From a bacterium (GTDB lineage: Bacteria; Omnitrophota; Gorgyraeia; Zapsychrales; Zapsychraceae): a stretch of DNA of 64,000 nt. The notes beneath the pieces are model-generated. The model was not told the origin of the DNA and did no database searches. It saw only the letters and a program-made list of their open reading frames with translations. Below, one piece after another: positions 28,101-56,686 of this stretch. The first letter of the stretch is position 1; each line of letters begins with the position of its first letter. The stretch covers positions 83,403 through 147,402 of the forward strand of contig JAUIER010000008.1 in the NCBI GenBank assembly GCA_030429765.1, read 5' to 3'. The position numbers and the translations under genes were made by a program.

Positions 28101-28140
28101 CCCCATAACCCCCCGGGGCTTTGGGACCAGGTCTTAAAAA
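28101..28140 (+). repeat. Dispersed intergenic repeat, copy A
   Basis: ccccataaCCCCCCGGGGCTTTGGGACCAGGTCTTAAAAA. Confidence 0.7.
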
Positions 28141-28250
28141 CAGGGCGTCGCCTCCCAAGTATCAGCCGTATTCTTGCCGTCGGTTTTACATCTGGACGTT
28201 TATCTCAGAATGTGGCATAATCATCGTACTAATTAACCCGAGGGTTTCGC

Positions 28251-28403
28251 ATGACTTCAATCCAGCTAAAGAAAGAACTTTCAAATATTAAAAAGGCCAG
28301 AGAGCGATTACTACGGGATCGCCGTAAAGCTCGAGCCTTCTTGCGTGCCATTGGTTTGATTGATAGCAACGGTAAGCCCGTAGCTCCCCTCAAACGTAAG
28401 TAA
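28251..28403 (+). CDS. Small basic protein (50 aa), translationally coupled to the downstream ART-like gene; candidate antitoxin or partner
   Basis: Absent from the ORF track. ATG at 28251 follows a GAGGG Shine-Dalgarno and a cataat -10. Its stop TAA overlaps the next start as TAATG. The protein is K/R-rich. Confidence 0.45.
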   Translation: MTSIQLKKELSNIKKARERLLRDRRKARAFLRAIGLIDSNGKPVAPLKRK

Positions 28404-28999
28404 TGCCTACCAACATACCTTCCTTCATTATCGGCTATCATGGGTGTGATCGAGAATTAGCTGAGAAAGTCATTGCTGGAGAAACACATTTAAGAGTTAG
28501 TAAGAATCGTTATGATTGGCTGGGCAATGGAATATATTTTTGGGAAAATAATCCTTACCGAGCTTTTCAATGGGCTAAGGATCATGTTGGCAAAACAAAT
28601 GCACGGATCAAGAATCCCTACGCAATTGGCGCGGTTATCAATCCGGGTAACTGTCTTGACCTAACGGAGGCCAAGTCGATTGAATTGATCAAACAGACCT
28701 ATTCGACAATATCCGCGATTGCCGATGTGGAAAATTTTGAGTTACCTCGGAACCAGGATGTGGATGGTAGCAGCGATTTCCTAGTCCGTAATCTGGATTG
28801 TTTTGTTATCAATGCTCTGCATGAAATCAGAGAGGAAACAGAAGATCCATTTGATACGGTCCGATCGCCTTTCTTTGAGGGAAATAGATTGTATGAGGGG
28901 TCGGGATTCCGTGAAAAATCCCATGTCCAAATCTGTGTGCGAAGTTCGGCCTCAATTCTGGGGTATTTCAGGATACTTCAGAAGGATGTATTTAAATAA
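28403..28999 (+). CDS. Candidate ADP-ribosyltransferase-fold protein (PARP/diphtheria-toxin-like)
   Basis: IIGYHGC aligns with the PARP WHGS motif; LGNGIYFWEN aligns with PARP FGKGIYFADM, the NAD-binding Tyr loop. The match is motif-level only. Confidence 0.4.
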   Translation: MPTNIPSFIIGYHGCDRELAEKVIAGETHLRVSKNRYDWLGNGIYFWENNPYRAFQWAKDHVGKTNARIKNPYAIGAVINPGNCLDLTEAKSIELIKQTYSTISAIADVENFELPRNQDVDGSSDFLVRNLDCFVINALHEIREETEDPFDTVRSPFFEGNRLYEGSGFREKSHVQICVRSSASILGYFRILQKDVFK

Positions 29000-29017
29000 A
29001 ACCTTGCCCCTTAATCT

Positions 29018-29045
29018 CCAGGGAATAGTGCCAGGTCTTAAAAAT
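29018..29045 (+). repeat. Dispersed intergenic repeat, copy B (degenerate: 3' half only)
   Basis: ccagggaatagtgCCAGGTCTTAAAAA. Confidence 0.45.
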
Positions 29046-29129
29046 AAAGGCGTGGATGCCTACTAAGCTAGGATAATTAAGCGATCTGATTCTACATCTT
29101 GCGGATAGCATAGAGAGGATTTATTTATA

Positions 29130-29927
29130 ATGAAATCAGCTTGGTTAACGGATATACATCTAAATTTTCTTAAAGACAGGCAAGTGAAGGGATTTCTAAA
29201 CGCGCTTGGAAAGGAGTCGGCGGATAATTATCTTATTTCTGGCGACATTGGAGAGGCTGACAGCGTAATTAAGTATTTAAAGCTGCTTGATTCAATCTTA
29301 GATAGACCCGTATATGTAGTTTTGGGTAATCATGATTTTTATAAGGGGTCAATAGAAGTCGTACGAAGCGAGTTGTCTGAGTATGTAAATCATTCCCGCA
29401 ATATTGTCTGGATGAACAAAATAGAGTTTATTGAGCTGACCGATAAGACGGCCTTGATTGGGCATGATTCATGGGCGGACGGTAGGATTGGAGATTTTTA
29501 TGGCAGTATGGTTGAATTAAATGATTTTCATCTAATCGACGAATTGAAATTGAAAGGCAAGGCGGCAAGGATTGAGGCCATGCAAAAATTGGCTGACGAG
29601 GCTGCAGATCACTTTAAACAAAATCTTCCAAAGATATTAAAGCGCTTTCAAAATGTTATTGTGCTTACTCACGTTCCACCTTTTAAAGAAGCGACATGGC
29701 ACGAAGGGAGTACGTCTGGTGATGATTGGCTGCCGTTTTTTTCAAGTCGGATTGTCGGAGATGTTTTGAAGCGTATCATGAATACGCATCCGGATCACAA
29801 CATGACTGTGCTTTGCGGACACACGCATAGTTCGGGTAAGTGTCAAATTTTGCCTAACCTAAAGGTTTTAACGGGAGGGGCAGAATATGGGATACCTGCC
29901 ATACAGCAAATTCTGAACATAACCTAG
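29130..29927 (+). CDS. Calcineurin-like metallophosphoesterase
   Basis: D..H, GD, GNHD and GHTH motifs (LISGDIG, VLGNHDF, CGHTH). Confidence 0.7.
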   Translation: MKSAWLTDIHLNFLKDRQVKGFLNALGKESADNYLISGDIGEADSVIKYLKLLDSILDRPVYVVLGNHDFYKGSIEVVRSELSEYVNHSRNIVWMNKIEFIELTDKTALIGHDSWADGRIGDFYGSMVELNDFHLIDELKLKGKAARIEAMQKLADEAADHFKQNLPKILKRFQNVIVLTHVPPFKEATWHEGSTSGDDWLPFFSSRIVGDVLKRIMNTHPDHNMTVLCGHTHSSGKCQILPNLKVLTGGAEYGIPAIQQILNIT

Positions 29928-29953
29928 AGCGTGCGGTAAGTCTAACCCGCCCC

Positions 29954-29990
29954 CCGGGGCTTTGGGCCCAGGGGTTAGTTGAAGATTGAT
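29954..29990 (+). repeat. Dispersed intergenic repeat, copy C (degenerate), followed by the AGGGCGCTGACCCCT hairpin
   Basis: cccgCCCCCCGGGGCTTTGGGCCCAGGGGTTAG. Confidence 0.5.
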
Positions 29991-30011
29991 TATAGGGCGC
30001 TGACCCCTATT

Positions 30012-33620
<3,609 letters not shown>

Positions 33621-33628
33621 TGGTAGTC

Positions 33629-33670
33629 TCGCAGCGCAATCCCTGGGGATTTGTAACCGAATCTTAAAAA
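33629..33670 (+). repeat. Dispersed intergenic repeat, copy E (degenerate)
   Basis: tcgcagCGCAATCCCTGGGGATTTGTAACCGAATCTTAAAAA. Confidence 0.5.
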
Positions 33671-33965
33671 GCAGGCCGACGCCCAACATAGTTCCTGTCT
33701 ACGCCCTATTCGGAAGTTCTATCATGTCTACCAATCGCTTTGGGGGGTGGGGGTGAGGCCTTTTTTATGGTAAGTAACCTAAAGGTCAAAGGTGAAGCCG
33801 GCGTCTCAGTTTAGATTTAAGTTATTGCTATATAATCATTTATGTATTACAAGTGTCGAATTGCAATCCTTATGATATTGAATAGTAACACTATGATAAC
33901 AAAGTGTATGATTTTGTATCTTTGTGCTAAAATACCCACAATATAATTCAAAAAAGGATTTCAAT

Positions 33966-34799
33966 ATGAGTTCATGGATATTTCAAGGAAACCCTGATAA
34001 ATTTGACGTTGATGAGTATCTCCGAAAAACCGATTATGTGTATTGGAGTGTAACATGGCCTGCGCATCAGAAACAAATGGCTATCGGGGATAAGGTATTT
34101 ATATGGCGGGCTAAAGGTAAAATGAAAGCAGTTTCGGGTTTGGTAGCTTTTGGAAGTATTGCTGAAGAATGTACTGGTAGGGATAAAGTAAAGAAGCCGA
34201 TGAAGATTTATGATTCTTTATGGAATTTAGGTCCGCAGGAAGAAGCGTCAGAAATCAAGGTTGGTGTGCAAATAACAGAAGTACGATTATCACCTGGAAA
34301 AGGTATGGTGACTTTGGATGAAATTTTATGTGACCCAGTTTTAAGTGATATGCAGATAGTCAAGGCTCGACAGGGGTCAAATTTTAGCCTTACTGAGGCT
34401 CAGTATCAAAGATTAGTTGAATTGTGGGGAAGTGTATCTGATGAGCAGATAGAATTTCAGCCAACAGGGTTATCAGTTTTAGAGGGAAAAATTTATTATC
34501 GTATTCATCGTACTAGAGAGCGTGATAGTAATATTGTTAAAAAGGCAAAAGCAGAATTTCTTAAGAAGCATGGATGTTATTTTTGTGAGATATGTAAGTT
34601 AAAGTTAGAAGAAAAATATGGGGATCTAGCTTCTGGTTTTATTGAAGCCCACCACATTAAACCTGTGAATAAAATGAAACTCGGAGATAAAACATCTGTT
34701 GATGATTTAATGATGTTGTGTCCAAATTGTCATAGAATATTACATCGAGGTGATCCAGAAGTTAATTTGGAAAAAATGAAAAATTTATTTAAAGATTAA
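33966..34799 (+). CDS. EVE (PUA-like) domain fused to HNH endonuclease; candidate modification-dependent restriction nuclease
   Basis: N-terminus WIFQGNPDKFDVDEYL...WSVTW...IGDKVFIW matches the EVE pattern. C-terminus CYFCEIC...HHIKP...CPNCH is a Cys4 HNH motif. Start moved to the ATG at 33966, which has a Shine-Dalgarno. Confidence 0.55.
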   Translation: MSSWIFQGNPDKFDVDEYLRKTDYVYWSVTWPAHQKQMAIGDKVFIWRAKGKMKAVSGLVAFGSIAEECTGRDKVKKPMKIYDSLWNLGPQEEASEIKVGVQITEVRLSPGKGMVTLDEILCDPVLSDMQIVKARQGSNFSLTEAQYQRLVELWGSVSDEQIEFQPTGLSVLEGKIYYRIHRTRERDSNIVKKAKAEFLKKHGCYFCEICKLKLEEKYGDLASGFIEAHHIKPVNKMKLGDKTSVDDLMMLCPNCHRILHRGDPEVNLEKMKNLFKD

Positions 34800-35203
34800 T
34801 GGATCATTTGTCTAAAACAAAAAGAAGTTGGAACATGTCCTTGATTAAATCAAAGGACACAAAGCCGGAAGTTATTGTACGGAGCATCGTCCATAGATTG
34901 GGATTTAGGTTTAGACTTCATAAATCTGGATTACCAGGCAGTCCAGATATAGTTCTTAAGAAATATAAAACAGTTATTTTTGTTCATGGATGTTTTTGGC
35001 ATCAGCATAAAGGCTGCAAAAGATCAAATATCCCAAAGACAAATCAGAAATATTGGATACCAAAGCTTGAAAGAAATTTAGAAAGAGATAGAATAAATAA
35101 AAGAGATTTGAAGAAAGATGGCTGGAAAGTTATTGTTTTATGGGAATGTCAGATGCGAGATCCTGAACGGCTGAAGTTGGATTTAATAAGTAAATTAATA
35201 TAG
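34799..35203 (+). CDS. vsr: Very-short-patch repair endonuclease Vsr
   Basis: DTKPE...GSPDIVL...FVHGCFWHQH Vsr signature; start overlaps the upstream stop as TAATG. Confidence 0.8.
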   Translation: MDHLSKTKRSWNMSLIKSKDTKPEVIVRSIVHRLGFRFRLHKSGLPGSPDIVLKKYKTVIFVHGCFWHQHKGCKRSNIPKTNQKYWIPKLERNLERDRINKRDLKKDGWKVIVLWECQMRDPERLKLDLISKLI

Positions 35204-35293
35204 AATTTGACATACCATACATATGTGTGGTATAAAGTTAATTGTCCCCCAGAAATCGATTCCCTTAACTAAAACTAAAGGAAAGGGGCAATT

Positions 35294-36328
35294 ATGGAAG
35301 ATCATTTTATGGCAAAATCAAACGGTTACACTGTTGGAAGTCTATTCGCAGGAATAGGAGGTGTATGTCAGGGCTTTAAGGATGCAGGCTATGATGTTAA
35401 ATGGGCCAATGAATTCGATAGTAACGCAAATGTGACTTATTCCGAAAACTTTACACATAAGTTAGATCCATCAGATATTCATGATTTAGATCCTTCTAAT
35501 TTTGAATCAGTAGATGTAATCACTTCTGGTTTTCCGTGTCAGGCTTTTTCTATCGCGGGTTATCAGCATGGATTTAAAGATGATAGAGGAAATTTATTCT
35601 TTGAGACTATGCGTTTCATAAATACTCTTAAGCCTAGAGCATTCTTATTAGAAAATGTAAAGAATTTGGTTTCTCATGATAAAGGTAGAACTTTTGAGAT
35701 TATTAAAGAAACGGTATTAGATAGCGGGTATTCTTTTGTTCCGAAAGTTTTAAATTCAATGGAATATGGAAATGTTCCGCAGACAAGAGAACGAATTTAT
35801 ATTGTTGGATTCCGAAATGAGTTCGACGATAACTCTGTTGATTTTCAATGGCCTAAAAAGATTAAGTTAGGTAAGTCAATTAGGGATGTTCTTGAAAGTT
35901 CTAAAGTAGATGATAAATATTACTACAAGAAAAGCTGTCATTTTTACAAGGAATTAAAAGCTGGAATGAAGTCACGAGATACCGTTTACCAGTGGAGAAG
36001 GGTCTATTTAAGAGAAAATAAAAGTAATGTCTGTCCAACTTTAACTGCAAACATGGGAACAGGTGGTCATAATGTTCCATTAATCTTAGATGATTATGGT
36101 ATTAGAAAATTAACTCCCAGAGAATGCGCTCGATTACAAGGGTTTAAGGAAAGTTATAAAATACCACATGAAAAGGTTTGTAATTCTCAACTGTATAAGC
36201 AGTTTGGAAATTCTGTAAGTGTTCCTGTGATTCGAAGAATAGCGAATCAAATACAGTCTCATTTAGATTTAAATGATGATGTCAAGAAGGTGGCTGTTGC
36301 AAAAGAGCTAGAGTTAGCAACGGTATAA
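35294..36328 (+). CDS. DNA cytosine-5 methyltransferase
   Basis: Motif I FAGIGG; motif IV GFPCQAFS; motif VI ENVKNL. Confidence 0.85.
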   Translation: MEDHFMAKSNGYTVGSLFAGIGGVCQGFKDAGYDVKWANEFDSNANVTYSENFTHKLDPSDIHDLDPSNFESVDVITSGFPCQAFSIAGYQHGFKDDRGNLFFETMRFINTLKPRAFLLENVKNLVSHDKGRTFEIIKETVLDSGYSFVPKVLNSMEYGNVPQTRERIYIVGFRNEFDDNSVDFQWPKKIKLGKSIRDVLESSKVDDKYYYKKSCHFYKELKAGMKSRDTVYQWRRVYLRENKSNVCPTLTANMGTGGHNVPLILDDYGIRKLTPRECARLQGFKESYKIPHEKVCNSQLYKQFGNSVSVPVIRRIANQIQSHLDLNDDVKKVAVAKELELATV

Positions 36329-36339
36329 TTTTATATTGA

Positions 36340-36378
36340 TTTAATTTAGGGCTGATACTTAACGGTGTCAGCCCTTTT
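36340..36378 (+). terminator. Intrinsic terminator after the methyltransferase gene
   Basis: GGGCTGAtacttaacggtgTCAGCCC followed by TTTTTA. Confidence 0.6.
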
Positions 36379-36418
36379 TATTTACCCTTTGTAATTAAGG
36401 TAATTATTGTTAATATAT

Positions 36419-37309
36419 ATGGAAGATAATGAAGGGCAAATATATATGACAATTGATAAGAATCAAGTTAAAAAGCTGAACAAAAAAGCTTCAAGTGTGC
36501 CAAAAGACTTTAAAGATGAGGTCACTAAGCAATTCAATATTGATATTGAGCAGGAAGCTATACAGATACAATTAGTTAAAGAGCTTGAAGATTATAATTA
36601 TGTGAAGAATAAAATTGTGAAAATAGCTGATAAATACGGCTATTACAAGGCTGATCTCCAAAAGTTTTATGACAATTATTTCTTCCGGCAAGTTTCTAAG
36701 AATATTAACTTTGACAGTGTTAATTCAGACATAATTAAAAATCTTGAGAAAGATTCTTCTATAAATTCAAATGAGTTATCATTTATTAAGTCAAAACTAA
36801 AAAATATCCTTAATAAGTCGCTATTTTTAGCGTCTATTGACGGGTTTTCAACAAATATATTGCATGTTGAATCAGGTGTAATGACCGCTAATGCTGGCGA
36901 TAGTGCTCAGTTTTTATTTTTAGGCAGAGCAATTTTAGCGGGATTTAATTGTTCTAACGTTGATGTTCGTTCTAGTAGATATGATGCAATTATTGATTTG
37001 GATGGTAAGCTATTAAAAATTCAAGTGAAAGGGATTTCTACTGGAGGAAGTATAAGTTTTAAAGATAGAGACAGAGGAGGTCAGGGGATAGATCATACTC
37101 ATCCAAGAAATGTTGGAAAAAGAATAACTAGTAAAGACTGTGATATTTTTGTAGCAGTAGATAAGCAAGTAGGTCTTTGTTATCTTGTGCCTATGGAAGA
37201 ATTTGCTGACCCATTATCCGATGATCAAGCGAAAAGTGTGAGCTTAAGTAAAGTGGAACAATACAAAGAAAATTGGGATATTATTAAGAAAGTTGCAGAT
37301 AGTATGTGA
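36419..37309 (+). CDS. Putative type II restriction endonuclease (PD-(D/E)XK-like), cognate to the adjacent C5-methyltransferase
   Basis: Position directly after the methyltransferase; YDAIIDLDGKLLKIQVKG resembles a D..D..(E/Q)xK core. The first ATG at 36419 is preferred over the tool's TTG at 36407. Confidence 0.4.
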   Translation: MEDNEGQIYMTIDKNQVKKLNKKASSVPKDFKDEVTKQFNIDIEQEAIQIQLVKELEDYNYVKNKIVKIADKYGYYKADLQKFYDNYFFRQVSKNINFDSVNSDIIKNLEKDSSINSNELSFIKSKLKNILNKSLFLASIDGFSTNILHVESGVMTANAGDSAQFLFLGRAILAGFNCSNVDVRSSRYDAIIDLDGKLLKIQVKGISTGGSISFKDRDRGGQGIDHTHPRNVGKRITSKDCDIFVAVDKQVGLCYLVPMEEFADPLSDDQAKSVSLSKVEQYKENWDIIKKVADSM

Positions 37310-38505: not shown

Positions 38506-38566
38506 TAGATCCCATATTGTCAACGGCAGGTAAGATACACCCAAGGCCCTGGAACCCATCCAGGGC

Positions 38567-38610
38567 CTTTTTTGTACCCCCGCTCCGCAACCCCCCGGGG
38601 GTTTGGAACC
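38567..38610 (+). repeat. Dispersed intergenic repeat, copy F
   Basis: ccccCGCTCCGCAACCCCCCGGGGGTTTGGAACCAGGTCTTAAA. Confidence 0.75.
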
Positions 38611-38619
38611 AGGTCTTAA

Positions 38620-38645
38620 AGCTTTGTTTTAGGGCGCTGACCCCT
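38620..38645 (+). terminator. Intrinsic terminator hairpin (TAGGG-cgctgac-CCCTA + T tract); a second copy lies at 29992-30010
   Basis: ttAGGGCGCTGACCCCTATTTTTTAT. Confidence 0.5.
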
Positions 38646-38725
38646 ATTTTTTATGCTATGATGAGGGGGTTTTTTGATTTTTTTGAAACTTTTTGGACGG
38701 GATTTTCGTCTAATCCAGTGAATGC

Positions 38726-39289
38726 TTGAGTATGGAAAACATATCCAGAGACACAATTGAAGACGCGGCCCGGGGTGATCTCGCGGCATTTGAGGCCATC
38801 TACCGGGAATGTTCCGGCTATGTGTTCAATGTGGCCTGGCGGATTGTCAACAACCGGGCGGACGCCGAAGAGGTCGTACAGGAGGTATTTCTGGTGATTC
38901 ATCGAAAACTGAAACATTACCGTTTTGAATCCGCGTTTAAGACCTGGGTCTACCGCGTGGCCGCCAACAGCGCCGTCGACTATGTGCGCAAAAGCGCCCG
39001 CACCCGGCCCACGGATGAGTATCGGGCGATGGTGCAGGCCGCGCCGCCCGCCGGACCATCCGGCCAGCCGGCCGATGAACGCCGTATCATCGAAACCACC
39101 CGCCGCGTGTTTGAGCGTCTGCCGGCGGACCAGAAGACCTGTATGGTGCTCCGGCACATCGAAGGCCTGTCCTACAAGGAAATCGCCGACACCCTCGACA
39201 TCAATATCAATACCGTACGAACCCGCTTGAGACGGGCGAGGGAGACCCTGCTCGCGCTCCGGCATGAGGTGCTGCACCATGAACTGTGA
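38726..39289 (+). CDS. ECF-type RNA polymerase sigma factor (sigma-70 family)
   Basis: Region 2 EEVVQEVFLVIHRKL..FKTWVYRVAANSAVDY and a region 4 HTH. Confidence 0.8.
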   Translation: MSMENISRDTIEDAARGDLAAFEAIYRECSGYVFNVAWRIVNNRADAEEVVQEVFLVIHRKLKHYRFESAFKTWVYRVAANSAVDYVRKSARTRPTDEYRAMVQAAPPAGPSGQPADERRIIETTRRVFERLPADQKTCMVLRHIEGLSYKEIADTLDININTVRTRLRRARETLLALRHEVLHHEL

Positions 39290-39806: not shown

Positions 39807-39811
39807 GGAGA

Positions 39812-45506: not shown

Positions 45507-45546
45507 TCATTTCCATTCAAGATGCCTGCCCGCGCGCCGGGCGGGC

Positions 45547-45590
45547 ATCGCCCTAACCCGCGTCGCCAGCCCCGGGGGCTTTGGGACCAG
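45547..45590 (+). repeat. Dispersed intergenic repeat, copy G
   Basis: cccgCGTCGCCAGCCCCGGGGGCTTTGGGACCAGGTCTTAAAAA. Confidence 0.75.
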
Positions 45591-45644
45591 GTCTTAAAAA
45601 GTAAAACTACCGACCGCCCGTCCTTCCTGATACAATGGTAGTTT

Positions 45645-46505
45645 ATGAAACGCCATCCTCTACAAATTTTGTTATGCGGCATCCTGTGTCTATGTTTGAC
45701 GTCCCAGGTGTGGGCGACGGACGCGTCACGGCTGGATCCCGGCGATGTGGTCTTTAAGATCGGCGTGTCGGGGATTCTCTTTGCCAAACGGGTGATTGTG
45801 GTACGGGTAGACCTGGCGCGTAATGAGGTCAAGGTGCGCGACGCCGAGACGGGAGACACGTACTGGACCAACGCGAAAAATCTCTATACCAAGACCGAGC
45901 GTAACCGGGATATCATGTGGCGGACGGTCAAAGGCGTCGATCAGGGATTCAAGAATATCGAGGCCGGCAAGCAGCGGCAGAATGCCACATACTCTGCTCC
46001 AAAAAAATATACCCCGCCCCGGACCAAGACCTACGCGGCCAACGCACGAGTCACGCCCGCCACTCGAGCGCCAAAGAAAACAACCGCCCCTACGTATCTC
46101 GGGCCCAAAAAAACAACCACACCGCCGCCGCAACGCACGTATACCTTCAAGACCGATCCCAAGCAGCGTCGCTTGATGATTCACAATCACTGTCATCGGC
46201 CCGTCGAGATGCTGTTTCATTTTAAGAACCGGGATAGCAAACTGCAGCTAGTCCTGCACAAACTCAAGGCCTACCAAAAGAAGTTTCTTGTCACGGAAAG
46301 CGGACAAACCGCCTATCCGCAGAATGGGTTGATATGGTATACCGCGGACACGCAGGATGGAACATATTCCTGGATGAATATCCCCGGCAAGGAATCTTAT
46401 TCACGTATTATGAACGGCAAAGCCCGGACCATGATCGACTACATCCCGTCCGCCAATGTGGACGGGGATTATCAGCTTATTCTCGAATGCCGTAATCTGA
46501 AGTAG
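45645..46505 (+). CDS. Secreted hypothetical protein with Pro/Thr/Lys-rich linker
   Basis: Signal peptide; central low-complexity segment PKKYTPPRTKTYAANARVTPATRAPKKTTAPTYLGPKKTTTPPP. Confidence 0.45.
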   Translation: MKRHPLQILLCGILCLCLTSQVWATDASRLDPGDVVFKIGVSGILFAKRVIVVRVDLARNEVKVRDAETGDTYWTNAKNLYTKTERNRDIMWRTVKGVDQGFKNIEAGKQRQNATYSAPKKYTPPRTKTYAANARVTPATRAPKKTTAPTYLGPKKTTTPPPQRTYTFKTDPKQRRLMIHNHCHRPVEMLFHFKNRDSKLQLVLHKLKAYQKKFLVTESGQTAYPQNGLIWYTADTQDGTYSWMNIPGKESYSRIMNGKARTMIDYIPSANVDGDYQLILECRNLK

Positions 46506-46551
46506 ACACCCGCTGCGCAACCCCCGGGGGCTTTGGAACCAGGTCTTAAAA
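46505..46551 (+). repeat. Dispersed intergenic repeat, copy H
   Basis: GACACCCGCTGCGCAACCCCCGGGGGCTTTGGAACCAGGTCTTAAAAA. Confidence 0.75.
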
Positions 46552-46622
46552 ATAGCTGGGCGATGTCCCCAAGTTTTAGTATGTCGAAAGTCATTCAGTC
46601 ACAAAAAGGTGGCATAAAAGAG

Positions 46623-48538: not shown

Positions 48539-48622
48539 GCGGGGCACCGCAAGTTGTTGAATTGGCATCAAGTGGTGAAGACATTATCAATCATCGAAAT
48601 CATATGAACAAAGGATAAAACA

Positions 48623-49708: not shown

Positions 49709-49748
49709 TCATCCGGCCGAATTTAGTGAGCCGGCGAAAGGAGTTGTT

Positions 49749-49937
49749 ATGAGCACATTTCTCGATGAGTTAAAAAGCAATTTAAATAAACGGATTCATT
49801 TTTCGCTGGACGATAATGATCCGCTCATGGACTTTAAATTGGTCGAGGTCGGCGACGATTATGTCAAGGTAGAGCACGGCCCCGTGCACCGCATCATCCC
49901 GATCAGCAAGATTACCTATATTCAGGAGCAGGAATAG
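49749..49937 (+). CDS. Hypothetical small protein
   Basis: 62-aa ORF after an AAGGAG Shine-Dalgarno; the tool start at 49698 overlaps the pfk stop. Confidence 0.35.
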   Translation: MSTFLDELKSNLNKRIHFSLDDNDPLMDFKLVEVGDDYVKVEHGPVHRIIPISKITYIQEQE

Positions 49938-50062
49938 CCCGGACGCGGATGTTTCAAACGTCCGGGAAGTGGGTGATCGGGGTTGATTCCAGAACAGCGC
50001 ATTGATTGTGGAGAAATAAATGCAACCAAAAAGTCACGCGCGTGACGAATTGGAGGGCAAGT

Positions 50063-50299
50063 ATGGAACAAGTCAATTGGGTATCGATCGGGTTCGGGAT
50101 AACTTTTTGGCTGTATGGATTGTTTACGCTTTTGATGCGCCAACGAAAGCCGTCAATATTTCGTAAGCTCGAACCCATGAAGAAACTGTGGGGTGAACAA
50201 TGGGGCGTCCGAATCCATTTTTTCGGTTACACCGTGATGCCGATTATTTTTGGTTCGGTCTTTGTTTGGGCAGGATTGAATGGGCAAAGTATTTTCTAA
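50063..50299 (+). CDS. Small two-TM membrane protein
   Basis: ATG at 50063 after GGAGGG; two hydrophobic helices. Confidence 0.35.
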   Translation: MEQVNWVSIGFGITFWLYGLFTLLMRQRKPSIFRKLEPMKKLWGEQWGVRIHFFGYTVMPIIFGSVFVWAGLNGQSIF

Positions 50300-50411
50300 T
50301 CAGCAGTATTTCCCCGTACTATTGCTGATTGTCAATATGTGAATGAATTGTTATGATGATCGGATACCTTAATTCGACTGACAGATTCCGCTCAATCATA
50401 AGGAGGTCTGT

Positions 50412-51467
50412 ATGAGCAATCAAATTACCGCCAAATATTTTTCCCAGGAAGATCTACTCAAGTCCGGTTGTCTGGATATGAATATGGCCGTTGCGGCCGC
50501 CGAGGACGCGCTGCTGGAATTCAAGAAGGGCGACGTGCTCTTTCCGCACAAGATCGTGCAGATCTTTAACCAGGACACGCAGGAGCGGATCAATTGTCTG
50601 CCGGCGACATTTTACCGCGACAAGATTTGCGGCATGAAATGGGTGTCCGTGTTTCCGCCCAATCCGGCGAAGTTCGGGGTGCAGAATCTGTCGGCGATGA
50701 TCATTCTGTCTGAAATCGAAAAGGGTTTTCCGATCGCGTTTATGGAAGGCACATTGTGTTCGAATATGCGCGTGGGCGCGATGGGGGCGATGGCGGCCAA
50801 ACATCTTTCTAAGGCCGACGCGGCGTCGATCGGGTTTATCGGTGCCGGCGAGCAGGCCAAGATGCATTTGATCGCGATGAAGACCGTGCGTCCGACCATT
50901 AAGGAATGCCGGGTCGCCGCCAAACTTCCCGAAGAAGAGGCGGCGTTTATTGATGAGATGAGCGCGATTTTTAAGGACATCACATTTAAAGCGGCCGATA
51001 CAAACCTGCAGGCCTCCGTTGACGGGGCAGATATCATCGTTACGGCCACCAGCGTTCAGGCGCCATTGCTCAAAGCCGATTGGGTCAAGCCCGGCGCGTT
51101 TTACAGTCATATCGGCGGGTGGGAGGACGAATACAAAGTCGCTGCTCAGTCGGACAAGATCGTCTGTGACGACTGGGACACGGTCAAGCACCGTACGCAA
51201 ACGCTCAGCCGGATGTACAAGGACGGTGAACTCAAGGACGAGGATATCTACGCCGATTTGATCGATATTGTCGATGGCAGCAAGAAGGGCCGCGAAAACG
51301 ATGACGAGCGGATTTACTTCAATGCCGTTGGATTGGCCTATGTCGATGTCGCGCTGGCAATTGCCATGTACCGGCGCGCCCACGAGGCCAATGCCGGCCA
51401 GGACCTGACCATCCAGGATTGCATGATCTTCCAGCACGAGCAGATCAAAGACTGGATCAGGATTTGA
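50412..51467 (+). CDS. Ornithine cyclodeaminase/mu-crystallin-family protein
   Basis: Rossmann motif IGFIGAGEQAKMHL; 351-aa length typical of the family. Confidence 0.7.
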   Translation: MSNQITAKYFSQEDLLKSGCLDMNMAVAAAEDALLEFKKGDVLFPHKIVQIFNQDTQERINCLPATFYRDKICGMKWVSVFPPNPAKFGVQNLSAMIILSEIEKGFPIAFMEGTLCSNMRVGAMGAMAAKHLSKADAASIGFIGAGEQAKMHLIAMKTVRPTIKECRVAAKLPEEEAAFIDEMSAIFKDITFKAADTNLQASVDGADIIVTATSVQAPLLKADWVKPGAFYSHIGGWEDEYKVAAQSDKIVCDDWDTVKHRTQTLSRMYKDGELKDEDIYADLIDIVDGSKKGRENDDERIYFNAVGLAYVDVALAIAMYRRAHEANAGQDLTIQDCMIFQHEQIKDWIRI

Positions 51468-51471
51468 AGGG

Positions 51472-51515
51472 TAGACCCGCTTCGCCACCCCCGGGGGATT
51501 TGGAACCAGGTCTGA
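51472..51515 (+). repeat. Dispersed intergenic repeat, copy I
   Basis: TAGACCCGCTTCGCCACCCCCGGGGGATTTGGAACCAGGTCTGAG. Confidence 0.75.
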
Positions 51516-51527
51516 GTCGCTAATGAT

Positions 51528-51555
51528 TTGACATATACGCAGAGCCATGTATAAT
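51528..51555 (+). promoter_or_regulatory. Sigma70 consensus promoter TTGACA-N16-TATAAT
   Basis: ttgacatatacgcagagccatgtataat; exact hexamers. Confidence 0.6.
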
Positions 51556-51561
51556 TAAAGA

Positions 51562-51648
51562 AGAAAAAAGCGCGGAAGCTTTTTTCGCGGGTTAAGGTGC
51601 CCAGCAAAATATATACGCATATATTTTGTTGGGCATTTTTTTTTGCTT
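51562..51648 (+). ncRNA. Candidate ~85-nt small RNA or attenuator-type leader: two hairpins, the second a strong intrinsic terminator
   Basis: Hairpin 1: AAAAAAGC-gcggaa-GCTTTTTT. Hairpin 2: CCCAGCAAAATATAT-acgc-ATATATTTTGTTGGG followed by ATTTTTTTTT. It lies directly downstream of the consensus promoter and ~40 nt upstream of the ATP-grasp start. Confidence 0.4.
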
Positions 51649-51690
51649 AGGGATTTTTGACGGCTGCATTCGGGGGTGCCATTCACAACG

Positions 51691-53148
51691 ATGCTGAAAC
51701 TGCTTCATAGTTACAAGACAGAGAGTTTTTACGACGAGATGTTTACGTCAGACGGCGACGTCCGTCCGGCCTACCGGTTTTTTCTGGATCAGCTGGAAGG
51801 ATTCTCGCTGGATGAACTCAAGGCCAAACAATGCTCGGCCGATAAATCCTACATATCGATGGGGATTACATTTAATGTGTATCACGACGGAGCGGGGGTC
51901 GAACGCACGCTGCCGTTTGATCTGTTTCCGCGCATCATTCCGAGTGACGAATGGGATGTCATTAATCGTGGTCTGATTCAGCGCGTCATCGCCATTGACC
52001 GCTTTATCGATGACATCTACGGCAAACAGCAAATCCTCAAGGACAAGATCGTCCCCGAAGAGATCGTCAAGACATCATCCGGTTATCTGCCGGCGTGTGA
52101 GGGGCTTAAGCCGCCGCAGCAGCGCTGGGCGCATGTGAGCGGGATCGACCTGATCAAGCACGGCGACGGACAAATCTATGTGCTCGAAGACAATTGCCGG
52201 GTACCGTCGGGCGTATCGTATGTGCTGGAAAACCGCGAGATCATGAAGCGGGCCTTTCCGTTTATCTTTCAGCAGATCAAGGTGCGGCCGATCAGCGATT
52301 ATCCCTTAAAATTACGCGAGAGTCTGGAGTTTCTGTCGGAACGGGACAACCCGACGGTGGTGGTGCTGACGCCGGGTATTTACAATTCAGCCTATTTTGA
52401 ACATTCGTTTTTGGCCCAGCAGATGGGGGCTGAGTTGGTTGAGGGTAAAGACTTGATGATCGAGAACGGCTATTGTTACATGCGCACCACTAAAGGATTG
52501 CAGCAGGTCGACGTGATCTACCGTCGATTGGATGATACGTTCATGGACCCTCAGGTATTCCGATCTGAGTCGGTGTTGGGTGTGGCCGGTTTGTTTGAGG
52601 CGTACCGGCGGGGCAACGTGGCCATTGCCAACGCCCCGGGCACCGGTGTGGCCGATGACAAGGTGATTTACGCCTACATGCCGGATATCATCCAGTACTA
52701 CACCGGCGAATCAGCCATCCTCCCGAATGTCCCGACCTATTTGTGTGCCCGTCCCGAAGATCTTCAGTATGTGGCTGAACACATCGATAAGTTGTGTGTG
52801 AAAGCAGCCGATCAGTCCGGCGGGTACGGTATGTTGATCGGGACCAAGTCCACCCGTAAAGAGCAGCGTGATTTTGTCGAGAAGATCAAGAACAATCCGC
52901 GCGGTTACATCGCCCAGCCGGTGATGCAGCTGTCCCGTGTGCCGACATTGATCGGCCGGCAATTGGAAGGACGTCACGTTGATTTGCGACCATACATACT
53001 ATACGGCGAGTCACCGTCGGTGATTCCCGGCGGGTTGAGCCGGGTGGCGCTTAAGAAAGGATCATTGGTGGTCAACTCATCCCAGGGCGGAGGGTCCAAA
53101 GACACCTGGGTGCTGGACACCGCCGAAAGTGAGGTCGACTATGCTTAG
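51691..53148 (+). CDS. Circularly permuted type-2 ATP-grasp protein (copy 1)
   Basis: Paralog of 56811-58310 (shared ...FYDEMF..., ...TPGIYNSAYFEHSFLAQQMG...SQGGGSKDTWVL). ATG 51691 is preferred over the tool's GTG at 51676. Confidence 0.7.
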   Translation: MLKLLHSYKTESFYDEMFTSDGDVRPAYRFFLDQLEGFSLDELKAKQCSADKSYISMGITFNVYHDGAGVERTLPFDLFPRIIPSDEWDVINRGLIQRVIAIDRFIDDIYGKQQILKDKIVPEEIVKTSSGYLPACEGLKPPQQRWAHVSGIDLIKHGDGQIYVLEDNCRVPSGVSYVLENREIMKRAFPFIFQQIKVRPISDYPLKLRESLEFLSERDNPTVVVLTPGIYNSAYFEHSFLAQQMGAELVEGKDLMIENGYCYMRTTKGLQQVDVIYRRLDDTFMDPQVFRSESVLGVAGLFEAYRRGNVAIANAPGTGVADDKVIYAYMPDIIQYYTGESAILPNVPTYLCARPEDLQYVAEHIDKLCVKAADQSGGYGMLIGTKSTRKEQRDFVEKIKNNPRGYIAQPVMQLSRVPTLIGRQLEGRHVDLRPYILYGESPSVIPGGLSRVALKKGSLVVNSSQGGGSKDTWVLDTAESEVDYA

Positions 53149-54106
53149 CCGTGTCGCTGATGCCATTTACTGGATGAGCCGATACATCGAACGGGCCGAG
53201 AACTACGCCCGCTTTGTCGACGTGAATTTTTTTCTGAATATGGATCTGCCTAAAACATTCGCGACGCAGTGGCAGCCGCTCATCGGAATCACCGGTGATG
53301 AACTGCTGTTTGAGTCCATCTATGGCGAGGTCTATTCTCAGGACAATGTGGTCGAGTTTCTGACATTCAATAAAGATAATCCGAGTTCGATTCTCAGCTG
53401 TCTGATTCGCGCGCGCGAGAACGCCCGCAGTATCCGTGAAATTATTTCGAGTGACATGTGGCGGCAGATCAATGAGATGTACTGGAATGTGAAGGATACA
53501 AATCTCACCAACAATCAGGATATCTCGGAGTTTTTTACGTTTATTAAACATGGGTCCCATTTGTTTCAGGGGATCATGGACTCGACGCTGATCCATAACG
53601 AGGCCTATCACTTTGCCAATTGCGGACGTTATATCGAACGGGCGGACAAGATTTCCCGTATTCTTGATATGAAATATTATTATCTGCTGCCGAGCCTGCA
53701 GGACGTGGGGACGCCGCTCGATTATCTGGAGTGGTCGGCGCTGCTGAAATCAGCCAGCGCGTACGAAGTCTATCGGAAAAAGTACGGACGACTGTATTTC
53801 AAAGATATTATCCAGTTTTTGATATTCGACCGGGAATTCCCGCGGGCGATTTATTTTTGTCTGCTGGATATTGATAAGTCGCTGCACACAATTTCCGATA
53901 CACGACTGGATACCTTTCAGAACCAGGCCGAGAAGGAAATGGGAAGGTTGATCTCACAGCTCACGTTTAATGACGTCGAGGATGTGATCCGGTTCGGCGT
54001 GCATGAATATTTAGATGATTTTCAGACCAAGTTGAATCACTTGGGGACGGCCATCACACAAACGTTTTTCGGGCAGGCCCGTATAAATCCAAAGGAGCAT
54101 GTATGA
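53129..54106 (+). CDS. Alpha-E domain protein (copy 1)
   Basis: MLSRVADAIYWMSRYIERAEN.. N-terminus; paralog of 58304-59257; classic partner of the CP-ATP-grasp. Confidence 0.7.
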   Translation: MRSTMLSRVADAIYWMSRYIERAENYARFVDVNFFLNMDLPKTFATQWQPLIGITGDELLFESIYGEVYSQDNVVEFLTFNKDNPSSILSCLIRARENARSIREIISSDMWRQINEMYWNVKDTNLTNNQDISEFFTFIKHGSHLFQGIMDSTLIHNEAYHFANCGRYIERADKISRILDMKYYYLLPSLQDVGTPLDYLEWSALLKSASAYEVYRKKYGRLYFKDIIQFLIFDREFPRAIYFCLLDIDKSLHTISDTRLDTFQNQAEKEMGRLISQLTFNDVEDVIRFGVHEYLDDFQTKLNHLGTAITQTFFGQARINPKEHV

Positions 54107-54846
54107 CGTATTGTTTGGGCATTAAGGTCAAAGAGGGGCTTATCGGTTTGGCGGACACTCGGATCACATCCGGTAACCAGACGATTACAGCCAAGAAGGT
54201 AATTATCGAACAGAAGCGGGGCAGGCACGCGGTATTCCTGATGACGTCGGGGCTGCGGGCGTTAAGAGACAAGGCCATGACATATTTCAATGAGATTATC
54301 GAGGAGTCGGGCGTTGATTATCGCAAGCTGTACAAACTGGTTAATGCCTTCGGTGCGCAGATCCGGCGGGTCAGTCAGGAGGATCGTGAGGCGTTGCGTC
54401 AATCCAATTACATGTTTGATATTCACGCGCTGATTGCCGGGCAGCTCGAAGACGACAAGGAGCATAAGCTTTACATGATCTTTCCAGAGGGTAATTGGGT
54501 GGAGGTCGGTGAGGCGAATCCCTACTTTATCATCGGCAATACCAGTCATGGCAAACCGATCCTCGACCGGGTGCTGCGCAATGATTCCACCCTGGACTTC
54601 GCGCTCAAGGTGAGTTTTCTGTCCTTCAATGCCACGCAGGTGAGTTCCAATGATGTGGACTATCCGGTGGACGTGATCCTTTATCGCAAGGATAGTTTTT
54701 ATATGGTCGATCAGCGACTGACCCAGGAGCAGATGAATCAGTACAGCAGCTGGTGGCAAAAGCGTCTGGGGACCGCCATTGAAGAGTTTCCCAGCGATTG
54801 GGCGGAGGAATTAGTCAAGAAATACCAAGTCTCTCAGGAGCAATAG
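54103..54846 (+). CDS. Anbu (ancestral beta-subunit) proteasome-like Ntn-hydrolase peptidase
   Basis: MTYCLGIKVKEGLIGLADTRITSG: catalytic Thr directly after Met. Sits in an operon with the ATP-grasp/alpha-E pair. Confidence 0.65.
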   Translation: MTYCLGIKVKEGLIGLADTRITSGNQTITAKKVIIEQKRGRHAVFLMTSGLRALRDKAMTYFNEIIEESGVDYRKLYKLVNAFGAQIRRVSQEDREALRQSNYMFDIHALIAGQLEDDKEHKLYMIFPEGNWVEVGEANPYFIIGNTSHGKPILDRVLRNDSTLDFALKVSFLSFNATQVSSNDVDYPVDVILYRKDSFYMVDQRLTQEQMNQYSSWWQKRLGTAIEEFPSDWAEELVKKYQVSQEQ

Positions 54847-54882
54847 TGATAAGCTATATGTACCAAAGGGGGCACGCGAGAA

Positions 54883-55302
54883 TTGAACAACCGGAATATA
54901 ATCCAAATAGTGAGTGGTGTCACTTTAAGTGGATTATTGATAGGCGTGCTTCCGGTTAGTCTTTGGTATTTCACAGAGTTTGATGAATGGCTGATAAATT
55001 TATTCGGTAAATCTCCTGAGTATTCAAGGCTTCATCTCGTGATGGCAAGGAAGGCTTTGATAGCGGTTATGATCGCCGTAAGTTTTCTGATTTGCTATAA
55101 GCTTCGGAATATTAAACGGTATCTTGCCATCAGTTTACTTGCCTCAATTATTCCAGGAACAATTTTGATCCACAAATTCTGCATACATCCTTTGACAATT
55201 AGCGGAAGGTTACGTGTACCGTCTGATTATGTTCCAGAAAATATCGACAACTTTTACACGCCGGTAGAATCATTGGATTTGTCTGGTGGGGGATCAAAGT
55301 AG
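54883..55302 (+). CDS. Hypothetical membrane protein
   Basis: Three hydrophobic helices; no motif. Confidence 0.35.
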   Translation: MNNRNIIQIVSGVTLSGLLIGVLPVSLWYFTEFDEWLINLFGKSPEYSRLHLVMARKALIAVMIAVSFLICYKLRNIKRYLAISLLASIIPGTILIHKFCIHPLTISGRLRVPSDYVPENIDNFYTPVESLDLSGGGSK

Positions 55303-55311
55303 ATATATAAA

Positions 55312-55788
55312 ATGGAAAAATTTAAGCGAGTTTCAAGCTTTGTAGGTATAGCGGTTGTGCTGTTGCCGGTACAAGCCCACGCCTGTCCCGGGTGCATGAT
55401 TATCCCGTCGAGTTCGCGGTTTAATCTGCTGGGATGGCTGTTTTGGCTGTCGTTGATCTACTGGGGAATTATGCTTATTAGCACGGCGGTGCGACAGGGT
55501 CAAAGAGGCCTGTCCCCGGAAGGGGACTGTCCCCTTTGGGGGACAAAGCTTGTTGTTGGTTGCGTGCTTTTGGCGCCATTCACCATGATGATGTCGGTGA
55601 TCGCCCTGCCGATCTTTACCTGTGTGCTGCAGGCCGTTCGGATCATCGTCAACCGGTCAAACTATACAAATCCCAGTTGGGCCGTCCGTTTGATCACGGC
55701 GTTTCAGTGGGTTGTCCTTGTCACCTTTGTGGTGATCTATATTGTCAAACCCGGCGGCGCGTTGCTGCCGTTGACCATAGGACATTAG
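55312..55788 (+). CDS. Hypothetical membrane protein
   Basis: Four hydrophobic helices; CPGC near the N-terminus. Confidence 0.35.
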   Translation: MEKFKRVSSFVGIAVVLLPVQAHACPGCMIIPSSSRFNLLGWLFWLSLIYWGIMLISTAVRQGQRGLSPEGDCPLWGTKLVVGCVLLAPFTMMMSVIALPIFTCVLQAVRIIVNRSNYTNPSWAVRLITAFQWVVLVTFVVIYIVKPGGALLPLTIGH

Positions 55789-55819
55789 TCGGCGCGTCGT
55801 GAATAGACAATTCGGTAAA

Positions 55820-56638
55820 TCAATACCGCGCATGGCCGCTCCAGTCCACCAGCCGATGCCGGAGACGGTTGATCCTGATGTTTAAATAAATTAACAAGGC
55901 CATGGAGAGGGGAAGGATGATGCCGGCCGTTTTTGTCAGCGTTCGCATAACCGGGCGATGTGTCTTGAGAACCTTGAGATCGGTCAGAAAGATGGTCTCG
56001 CAGTCGTCATCGGTCCGTGCAAAACTCGAACGGCGGATCAGTTGGCCTTTGTAGTAGTAGGACGACAGGAATCCCGACAGCCGGATCAGATCACCGGCGC
56101 GGATGTCGCGTAATTTTTGTTTGAGCGCGCGGTCATTGGTCAAAATATGATTGTGGCCGATGTGATCGGTCCGAAAATTGGCGTGAACGCGCGGCGCCAC
56201 CTCGTTATTTTTGGCCTTGGCGAAACACGTATATGCGCCTTGATTGAAGGTCATGTCTTGATAAATCCCCGTCGAGACATTGTGTCCCCAAATCAGACAC
56301 AGATCATTTACGTTAAGGGTGTCGCGAAAGCGCAGCCAGGGGAACAGCGCGGAGAGTACCGTTTTGTTGTTGGATGACACCACCATCCCGACCTGTTCAT
56401 AGAGAAAATGCGTCTGGAACATGAATTCTTTTTTACCGGCCACGACGGCGTACAGTTGCGGTTCGACCGGGATCTGCGCGGGCAGGTAGTTGACCTCATT
56501 CATCGCCGGAGATACAGGCGGAAGCTTGTTGATGTGCGGCTGAAGGCCCAGGCCGATCACCAGCGATCCGATCAGACATCCCACGCAGAGGCGGCGATAG
56601 CGTTTGAGGGTTTCAAATTGTTGTTTGACCGTGTCCAT
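55820..56638 (-). CDS. Hypothetical protein
   Basis: Long minus-strand ORF, unique in not being antisense to a recognised gene. Internal start MDTVKQQ is preferred over 56656 because the extension overlaps an intergenic repeat. Confidence 0.35.
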   Translation of the reverse strand: MDTVKQQFETLKRYRRLCVGCLIGSLVIGLGLQPHINKLPPVSPAMNEVNYLPAQIPVEPQLYAVVAGKKEFMFQTHFLYEQVGMVVSSNNKTVLSALFPWLRFRDTLNVNDLCLIWGHNVSTGIYQDMTFNQGAYTCFAKAKNNEVAPRVHANFRTDHIGHNHILTNDRALKQKLRDIRAGDLIRLSGFLSSYYYKGQLIRRSSFARTDDDCETIFLTDLKVLKTHRPVMRTLTKTAGIILPLSMALLIYLNIRINRLRHRLVDWSGHARY

Positions 56639-56643
56639 CACAT

Positions 56644-56686
56644 ACCCGTTGCACAACCCCCCGGGGATTTGGAACCAGGTCTTAAA
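56644..56686 (+). repeat. Dispersed intergenic repeat, copy J
   Basis: ACCCGTTGCACAACCCCCCGGGGATTTGGAACCAGGTCTTAAAC. Confidence 0.7.

Follow-up and report, generated by a model that had tools for sequence, protein, structure and literature searches.

What kind of element is a 45-nt sequence that occurs ten times in 29 kb of bacterial DNA, between genes and always on the same strand? The question is raised by a 64,000-nt stretch of an Omnitrophota genome (contig JAUIER010000008.1; hereafter the window, meaning the whole stretch that was analyzed). A first-pass annotation had described the family and proposed three candidate roles for it: a stabilizer or RNase-processing element in the 3′ untranslated region (3′-UTR), a protein-binding site, or a miniature mobile element. 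We found that the family has multiplied recently in this genome and is located almost anywhere that insertion is harmless. We tentatively favor the reading, to which we give a little less than an even chance, that the repeat is a lineage-specific, recently amplified and non-autonomous element resembling repetitive extragenic palindromes (REPs), spread in trans by strand-specific insertion.

A covariance model (CM) built from eight aligned copies was used, with filters off, to search both strands of the entire window. It returned eight strong matches (54–73 bits) and two weak fragments, all on the + strand, all intergenic and all between 28 and 57 kb. These are the ten sites of the first-pass annotation, whose repeat family is therefore real, with small shifts in coordinates: the positions 38567 and 45547 start 6–10 nt too early, 29954 falls in mid-copy, and 29018 marks merely a 3′ fragment. 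We keep these positions as names for the copies. The claim that every copy lies on the same strand also held (10/10), as no genuine copy was found by the model on the minus strand of the window, where matches of up to 15 bits are palindromic echoes of the + strand copies. Motif counts in the 64 kb agree with the model. CCCCGGGG occurs exactly eight times against 0.8 expected, every time within a repeat copy; the CCCCCCGGGGG core has 13 matches with up to one mismatch against 1.3 expected; and the 20-nt 3′ half has six matches with up to three mismatches against none expected, each time on the + strand. One further minus-strand model match, over 12 nt at 38936–38947 inside an extracytoplasmic function (ECF) sigma gene, is probably a coincidence; here the F-K-T-W-V-Y codons of the gene (TTTAAGACCTGGGTC; 38936–38952, minus strand) agree with 14 of 15 positions of the reverse-complemented 3′ half of the repeat (CM E = 0.23).

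The repeat unit is (G)ACCCGCTTCGCCA-CCCCCCGGGGG-TTTGGAACCAGGTCT, followed by TAAA(A) in eight of the ten copies, and can be written with its A-rich tail as (G)ACCCGCTTCGCCA-CCCCCCGGGGG-TTTGGAACCAGGTCTTAAAA. It consists of a 41-nt imperfect palindrome, 73% self-complementary, plus the A-rich tail, and has the palindrome CCCCCGGGGG at its core. The AGACC and GGTCT ends that had been ascribed to the better copies are exact in just two of them (32344 and 51472) and not elsewhere, the copy at 46505 reading AGACAC. The six full copies are 76–91% identical to one another, and the pair 51472/32344 is 91% identical. The sequence of the repeat is conserved more than its structure, and unevenly so. Non-consensus cells number 17/192 in the 3′ half vs 29/158 in the 5′ half (Fisher p = 0.01), the 5′-truncated copies at 28101 and 29018 retain the 3′ end, and changes in the 5′ arm are not balanced by matching changes in the other arm. 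The better conservation of the 3′ half, together with the two fragments that keep the 3′ end, is in line with a protein recognizing that half.

Genes were placed by lists of open reading frames (ORFs), Pfam and coding-potential scores, and on this map, among intergenic gaps of ≥40 nt, the copies fill 10 of 19 at 28–57 kb vs 0 of 13 elsewhere in the window (one-sided Fisher p ~0.0014). No gap contains more than one copy. The occupied gaps are co-directional in seven cases, convergent in one and divergent in two, the latter being both of the divergent gaps in the region. Eight copies, those of the co-directional and convergent gaps, begin 0–70 nt after a + strand stop codon, in broad agreement with the earlier statement that most begin 5–60 nt after one. 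The copies at 32344 and 56644 depart from it: they lie in the divergent gaps and adjoin the 5′ ends of minus-strand genes, for monomeric isocitrate dehydrogenase (IDH; 30012–32240) and for a 272-aa protein (55820–56638), the latter gene being supported by codon statistics and by its ortholog in L015 (57% identity). REPs are extragenic repeats of high copy number, located for the most part in co-directional or convergent gaps; they keep near the ORF upstream of them, at its 3′ end, their spacing to the next ORF is variable, and a TAG at their edge can serve as the stop codon (PMC3733652). When all ten copies are set against this description (all intergenic, eight of them within 0–70 nt of a stop), their distribution matches the published behavior of REPs.

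The family is also lineage-restricted. The comparison with related taxa that had been suggested for the repeat turned up no true copy in the relatives, GTDB, JGI, IMG/VR or PLSDB. The exact pattern GGGGNTTTGGRACCAGGTCT gave a handful of chance matches, all without the CCCC arm, in 185,579 GTDB species genomes and the JGI metagenome contigs, and no match in IMG/VR; blastn of one copy against the PLSDB plasmids gave short partial matches only (E 0.3). The five peptides that the reading frames of the element encode were combined into one query, for ORF calls running into other copies, and this found no match. Relatives were reached via IDH and a 286-aa protein, the closest named relatives by IDH being Omnitrophota metagenome-assembled genomes (MAGs) at 81–82% identity. 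No copy is present in 57 kb from relatives, ~30 kb of which come from a sister species (L004) with an 86%-identical IDH. Exact-protein look-ups returned only Logan contigs of up to 10 kb from SRR24442552 (a biofloc aquaculture metagenome, PMC10582022, with no Omnitrophota among the genomes listed in its MAG paper) and ERR3428548; these are 100% identical to the window and belong to the same organism, and they extend the known sequence by 629 nt. Two independent Logan assemblies (L016 and L017) begin inside the copy at 56644, at 56659, and such breaks are typical of multi-copy repeats.

Two chance matches to the pattern (L002 3975–3994 and L007 806–825; uncultured Clostridium MAG, ENA contig) both carry GGGGATTTGGGACCAGGTCTTAAATCCCC, a hairpin with a loop resembling the 3′ half of the repeat and probably unrelated to it. 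A relative, GCA_029261065.1, has an unrelated intergenic repeat of its own (AAAGGGACAGTCCCCGTTTAGGGACAGG...) in at least three gaps beside toxin–antitoxin-like small genes (L005 5180–6190).

Two junctions could be compared with relatives. The L014 ortholog of the 286-aa gene has the same end, ...AAATAG, and then a canonical terminator where the window has the copy at 46505. Upstream of IDH, nucleotide homology to the sister species ends exactly at the 5′ edge of the copy at 32344. In these alignments both junctions look like insertions. The miniature mobile element is thus the best supported of the three roles proposed at first, by the lineage restriction, the identity among copies, the element-less L014 ortholog and the homology that stops at the element's edge.

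Such an element would be copied in trans by an enzyme encoded elsewhere in the genome and specific for single strands, and its recognition would depend mainly on the conserved 3′ half. Candidates are a transposase of the REP-associated tyrosine transposase (RAYT) or IS200-IS605 type, with an HUH Y1 domain, or another recombinase that recognizes the 3′ half, GGGGN-TTTGGAACCAGGTCTTAAA. Insertion into one strand would fix the orientation of the copies. The 5′ flank is often TA(G/A), and insertion beside the stop codons of co-oriented genes would explain both their position and their co-orientation. Effects on transcripts, as a 3′-UTR or 5′-UTR hairpin, would be secondary and specific to individual copies.

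Several observations weigh against a mobile REP-like element. Pfam found no Y1_Tnp or other transposase in the 64-kb window among ~50 selected ORFs, a set that comprised all those longer than ~80 aa outside the conjugative-element genes at 1–8 kb, which were covered via precomputed Pfam hits. The GTAG tag is exact in three of nine copies (46505, 51472 and 33629), the others reading GTAC, CAAG, CTAA, CATA or CCTA, and the TAG at 46505 is the gene's own stop codon, present in the element-less ortholog too. The hairpin is thermodynamically weak, most copies folding no better than shuffled sequences as RNA or DNA, and covariation is marginal on both strands (eight sequences only). There are no inverted partner copies among the ten, no target-site duplication is visible in the flanks of the copies, and synteny with the relatives breaks at both junctions, which leaves no clean empty site. 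That one half is better conserved than the other could just as well reflect binding by a host protein. In published REPs a conserved unpaired GTAG, or a close variant, stands at one end of the palindrome in >90% of units (PMC3733652), and RAYTs normally need this tag (PMC8266576); here the AG at the tag position pairs with the 3′ CT in the fold. The missing inverted pairs, as in the bacterial interspersed mosaic elements (BIMEs), are not strictly disqualifying, because REP families dominated by singletons exist (PMC3733652). We agree with the first-pass annotation that the absence of inverted copies, now extended to the 64 kb, differs from typical REP/BIME behavior. In a REP/RAYT system, moreover, REPs flank the transposase gene, an arrangement called a REPtron. 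Because the GTAG is degenerate, inverted partners are missing, the stem is weak and the window has no RAYT, we call the repeat REP-like and do not assign it to a REP/RAYT system.

Copies of the 45-nt repeat and associated small hairpins in the window
Feature	Coordinates	Strand	Support	Remarks
Copy 28101	28093–28141	+	CM 59.7 bits; alignment	3′ two-thirds intact (AACCCCCCGGGGCTTTGGGACCAGGTCTTAAAAA); 5′ third diverged/truncated
Copy 29018 (fragment)	28999–29045	+	CM 16.7 bits, E 0.037; exact 12-mer	Kinship clear in 3′ end only
Copy 29954 (degenerate)	29938–29977 by eye	+	CM 13 bits at 29947–29964; repeat search 89% over 28 nt	GTCTAACCCGCCCCCCGGGGCTTTGGGCCCAGGGGTTAG
Copy 32344 (best copy)	32343–32391	+	CM 73.2 bits	Divergent gap, IDH / 378-aa gene
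Copy 33629 (most diverged full-length copy)	33624–33671	+	CM 54.3 bits	60–74% identical to other copies
Copy 38567	38575–38623	+	CM 66 bits	
Copy 45547	45553–45601	+	CM 64.2 bits	Core GCCCCGGGGGC; identical copy in Logan contig L003
Copy 46505	46505–46553	+	CM 71.4 bits	Abuts TAG stop codon of 286-aa gene
Copy 51472	51472–51518	+	CM 62.3 bits	5 nt past stop of ornithine-cyclodeaminase-family gene (Pfam)
Copy 56644	56641–56689	+	CM 65.9 bits	Divergent gap; abuts ATG (56638) of minus-strand 272-aa gene
Mini-hairpin GGGCGTCGCCTCCC	28143–28156	+	Regex census	4 nt past tail of copy 28101
Small hairpin TAGGGCGCTGACCCCTA + T6	38630–38646	+		Identical 17-mer with T-run at 29993–30009

The copies differ in completeness and in their neighbors. 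The copy at 28101 begins 18 nt past the stop of a GNAT gene (27539–28075; Pfam GNAT). The fragment at 29018, placed after the stop of a 198-aa ORF (28403–28999), keeps an exact 14-mer, CCAGGTCTTAAAAA, at 29031–29044, preceded by G vs the consensus A. The copy at 29954 has lost ~8 nt internally, is diverged at its 3′ end, and sits in the convergent gap between a metallophosphoesterase gene (29130–29927, +) and IDH on the minus strand. The copy at 33629 begins 4 nt past the stop of the 378-aa gene and forms the left border of a 35%-GC restriction-modification islet, according to the GC profile and Pfam. That at 45547 begins 47 nt past the stop of an LTXXQ gene, the last gene of an RND-efflux cluster (Pfam). 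The palindrome is complete at 51472, where GGTCTGAGT stands in place of the TTAAAA tail.

A transcribed 3′-UTR element, made together with the upstream gene and acting as a decay barrier, as an RNase site or in support of the small hairpin terminators behind it, would account for the eight copies close behind co-oriented stop codons, and REPs elsewhere are thought to act as such elements (PMC3733652). Five copies are moreover followed, at 4–22 nt, by a GGSCG-N2-6-CCC mini-hairpin (28143, 29995, 33674, 38632 and 46558), two of them with a T-run, so that the element is placed between stop codon and terminator. The + strand of the window has 14 regex matches to this mini-hairpin, and by the gap table only the five beside copies lie in intergenic gaps. 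The folding of the repeat argues against a transcribed role. Its structure allows 15–18 pairs, with 77–79% of cells paired; yet the z-scores of the + strand (the mRNA sense) against shuffled sequences are −1.7, +0.4, +0.1, +2.1, +1.7, +1.0, +0.75 and +0.7 for eight copies, positive in seven of them. The folding that had been proposed as a check on the repeat thus shows the transcribed strand to be no better than shuffles and worse than the antisense strand, which folds somewhat better as RNA (z −3.4 to +0.55) because C·A mismatches turn into G·U pairs. The sole significant fold is that of the minus strand at 32344 (z −3.4 as RNA, −2.8 with DNA parameters). The repeat itself lacks a U-tract, its 5′-arm changes go uncompensated, and it matches no Rfam family.

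The position of individual copies also speaks against a role in RNA. The IDH promoter on the minus strand, TTGAGA-17-TATACT, is conserved in the sister species and has its −35 box at 32344–32339; the copy at 32344 lies between this box and the predicted promoter (32415–32442) of the downstream 378-aa gene on the + strand, and is probably not transcribed. The copy at 38567 stands directly behind the strong canonical terminator of a PEP-CTERM gene (38543–38569 in the terminator scan; 11-bp stem + T6) and precedes the small hairpin-plus-T terminator of the table. A role in RNA is implausible at these two sites, between −35 boxes and behind a terminator, and the copy at 56644 falls in the 5′ region of a minus-strand gene. 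Because two copies are in divergent promoter regions and one is behind a strong terminator, an RNA function cannot define the family, and the 3′-UTR stabilizer or RNase-processing site of the first-pass annotation is unsupported as its defining role. Such a function is unlikely as a general account, though it stays live and is compatible with the mobile REP-like element.

Two of the five mini-hairpins consist of the 17-mer TAGGGCGCTGACCCCTA plus a T-run, and these two sites of the window are 86% identical over 35 nt including flanks. A relative that matches at 15 of 17 positions, TAGAGCGCTGGCCTCTA, is present in the sister species at 13434–13450 of L004, and for this reason the 17-mer is probably a separate and older terminator-type repeat, beside which the 45-nt element sits. 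The mini-hairpins at 28143, 33674 and 46558 can be read on the minus strand, where the tail of the repeat then provides the T-run (e.g., TGGGCGTCGGCCTG-CTTTTTAAGA), and the scan calls terminator-like structures for antisense transcription at 33685–33672 and 46572–46556. The combination of mini-hairpin and tail may insulate against antisense read-in.

Alternatively, a host protein could bind the repeat as double-stranded DNA, for example a regulator, a recombinase or a nucleoid-associated protein, and the site could be a polar chromosomal signal tied to the direction of replication. This would suit a 3′ half (TTTGGAACCAGGTCTTAAA) that is conserved more strongly than any structure, the palindromic core, the regional clustering of copies and the copy that abuts a −35 box. 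All ten copies, including the two of divergent and the one of convergent gaps, are co-oriented with the G-rich, presumably leading, strand. The flanking genes, however, share no common functional theme, and the element is absent at the same genes in the sister species, whereas an essential architectural site would be expected to persist there; the family tolerates copies that are degenerate or truncated, and sigma-54 and ECF promoter readings fail on spacing. The binding site of the first-pass annotation draws support from the conservation of the 3′ half; we regard it as unlikely by itself, and like the 3′-UTR element it is compatible with the spread of a REP-like element.

The orientation itself has to be read with caution. 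Under random orientation, ten of ten copies on one strand has p ~0.002. The window, however, has 58 genes on the + strand and 6 on the minus strand, and its GC skew is positive throughout; because gene direction, GC skew and copies all point one way, the same-strand finding is uninterpretable here. The copies of the divergent and convergent gaps hint that orientation does not simply follow the upstream gene, and three cases are too few. It is conceivable, but doubtful, that the one-strand orientation is intrinsic. The repeat would then either insert only into one replication strand, next to TA(G/A), as a stop-codon-seeking single-stranded DNA element, or be a polar, replication-oriented chromosomal signal, with half of the copies coupled to a mini-hairpin to give an antisense hairpin plus U-tract. 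If true, oriented REPs of a new kind would exist in an uncultured lineage that has been little studied.

Two further accounts start from the arrangement of neighboring genes. One takes the repeat as the attC-like site of a gene-cassette array, either a cluster of attC sites lacking an integron integrase (CALIN) or an integron that has degenerated, with the repeats as borders of single-gene islets. Integron attC sites have R″ (RYYYAAC) and R′ (GTTRRRY) boxes, measure ~55–140 nt and occur one per promoterless cassette of 0.5–1.5 kb, with IntI nearby. At 27.5–30 kb the GNAT gene, the 198-aa ORF and the metallophosphoesterase gene are each followed by a copy, at spacings of 917 and 936 nt and at 44–46% GC; the copy at 29954 reads GTCTAAC...GTTAGTT, resembling R″/R′ boxes, and the bottom strand folds better than the top, as in attC. 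The consensus ends, however, are AAGAC...GTCTT and not AAC...GTT, the unit of 41–45 nt is too short, and only three of nine spacings are ~1 kb, most extending over 2.4–7 kb and across RND efflux, PFK and ATP-grasp operons and the minus-strand IDH. The sole tyrosine recombinase in the window is that of the conjugative element, at tRNA-Ser and 18 kb off, and there is no IntI in the window. With boxes, size, spacing and integrase all at odds with it, the attC reading is largely refuted, and we consider it extremely improbable.

The other account is a local segmental duplication, in which the repeats were copied together with neighboring genes and without mobility. Tandem operons at 51676–54106 and 56811–59257 are paralogous, each with genes for a circularly permuted ATP-grasp protein (CP_ATPgrasp) and for Alpha-E; behind them comes a gene for a proteasome-type subunit in one case and a transglutaminase/DUF2126 gene in the other. 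The operons are ~5.17 kb (5170 nt) apart and 66–77% identical in DNA. Both are preceded by a repeat copy, and the copies are clustered regionally. The two operon-linked copies are nevertheless not nearest relatives (82% identity vs 91% for 51472/32344), the paralogous coding DNA is less similar than the elements are, the sequence between element and operon shows no obvious similarity by eye, and the other eight copies flank unrelated genes. A duplication of this kind is very unlikely as the origin of the family.

Other classes were tried and rejected. An intrinsic terminator is excluded by the lack of a U-tract, the weak + strand hairpin and a terminator scan that called none of the ten copies; the first-pass annotation was right that the repeat, which continues into TTAAAA, has no U-tract and is not a canonical terminator. 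Rfam 15 gave no match in the window at gathering score save tRNA, and no match with E ≤5 on any copy in 28–57 kb. Miniature inverted-repeat transposable elements have terminal inverted repeats and a target-site duplication and usually measure 100–400 bp, and do not agree with a 45-nt unit that has a 5–6 bp AGACC/GGTCT pair in just two to three copies and no duplication. As promoter motifs, read from the sequence, a sigma-54 site lacks GC at −12, an ECF site (GGAAC ... CGTC) varies in spacing from 18 to 25 nt, and a sigma-70 −35 box has no −10 box at a fixed distance. Matches like the putative decayed, inverted relic of the 3′ half upstream of IDH in the sister species (TTTGGAAGCCCAGATC) are expected 3–11 times per 15 kb by chance.

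An att-site remnant derived from tRNA-Asn was dismissed, the repeat having no similarity to the tRNA 3′ end. At 24655–25941 the stretch immediately upstream of tRNA-Asn (25261–25336) is duplicated as a ~134-nt repeat (89% identical), which brackets a small GIY-YIG ORF (24899–25150), with a second GIY-YIG ORF at 25687–25941; internal GC hairpins, CCCGCCAAAAAATCGTGGCGGG, recur three times here, and the region looks like a homing-endonuclease-type insertion beside the tRNA. The defense or restriction-modification islet bordered by the copy at 33629 (33924–37309; 35% GC) encodes EVE-HNH, a Vsr very-short-patch endonuclease, a C5 cytosine methyltransferase and a PD-(D/E)XK nuclease. A link of the repeat to this methylase and Vsr, via the CCCGGG and CCWGG sites of the element, was rejected because the rest of the window shows no shortage of CCCGGG (24 found, 13 expected).

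The covariance model finds no copy within the integrated conjugative element at 1–10.4 kb. The first 10,618 nt of the window hold the end of this integrative conjugative element, of low GC (38–45%), with type IV secretion system genes of the TrbL, TrbI and TraG types and genes for a YhcG/DUF1016 nuclease, an HTH protein and a tyrosine integrase (9366–10391). It abuts tRNA-Ser(GCT) at 10528–10618, behind which lie three 50-nt tandem repeats (10645–10776). Past the copy at 51472, at 51528–51645 and just upstream of the ATP-grasp gene (51676), there is a perfect sigma-70 promoter, TTGACA-16-TATAAT (12/12), followed after ~40 nt by a hairpin with a 20-bp stem and T7 (51594–51639). Promoter and hairpin together are a candidate small RNA or attenuator leader.

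In practical terms the repeat is a marker of operon ends and of rearrangement junctions in the MAG, breaks short-read assemblies and is a possible strain marker. Its biological interest depends on whether, genome-wide, the copies are oriented by replichore and not by the gene upstream. In that case the family would be a clean natural case of strand-specific REP-type spread outside Proteobacteria, pointing to the enzyme responsible; if not, it merely adds another to the small palindromic repeats specific to single lineages.

Some known repeat families double as terminators, among them the Neisseria DUS pairs and mycobacterial TRIT. Like these, the repeat is conserved and stands just after stop codons, co-oriented with the gene; unlike these, it has no U-tract, a weak hairpin, canonical terminators beside its copies, some untranscribed positions and no Rfam match. 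The resemblance to integron attC/CALIN sites lies in oriented repeats each behind a single small gene at 27.5–30 kb and in the better-folding bottom strand. The palindrome-associated elements derived from IS200/IS605, with single-strand transposition on the lagging-strand template (PMC6006769), are likewise strand-specific. With them the repeat shares an orientation along the G-rich, presumably leading, strand, a biased 5′ flank, TA[G/A], that recalls a target or guide tetranucleotide, and the lack of a target-site duplication. It differs in having a single palindrome in place of separate left and right subterminal hairpins, and no TnpA gene or full-length insertion sequence was seen in the window.

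A further comparison is with the REP/GTAG repeats that are mobilized by RAYTs, for example Escherichia coli REP/BIME, Pseudomonas REP and Stenotrophomonas SMAG (PMC3733652, PMC2817692, PMC8266576). In this genome, as in those systems, the units are short GC-rich palindromes (20–45 nt) that occur strictly outside genes, in many copies and with a species-specific sequence. They keep near the ORF upstream, at its 3′ end, while their spacing to the next ORF varies, an edge TAG can coincide with the stop codon, one strand gains G·T pairs, and single units predominate, as they do in some published REP families. Unlike a REP, the repeat has a degenerate (3/9 exact) and partly paired GTAG, and a stem that is long but weak, with at least five mismatches and a stability no better than shuffled. 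REPs form a short GC-rich stem-loop, with a stem of 6–13 bp, that can fold as single-stranded DNA or RNA; here 77–79% of cells pair in the 41-nt imperfect palindrome, and the folding energy beats shuffled sequences only for the minus strand at 32344. The copies of the repeat all lie on one strand, without the inverted partners of BIMEs or REPINs, do not avoid divergent gaps (2/2 occupied), and have no RAYT gene within the 64 kb. In kind, then, this is an ordinary species-specific small palindromic intergenic repeat, unusual only in its uniform orientation and its regional clustering.

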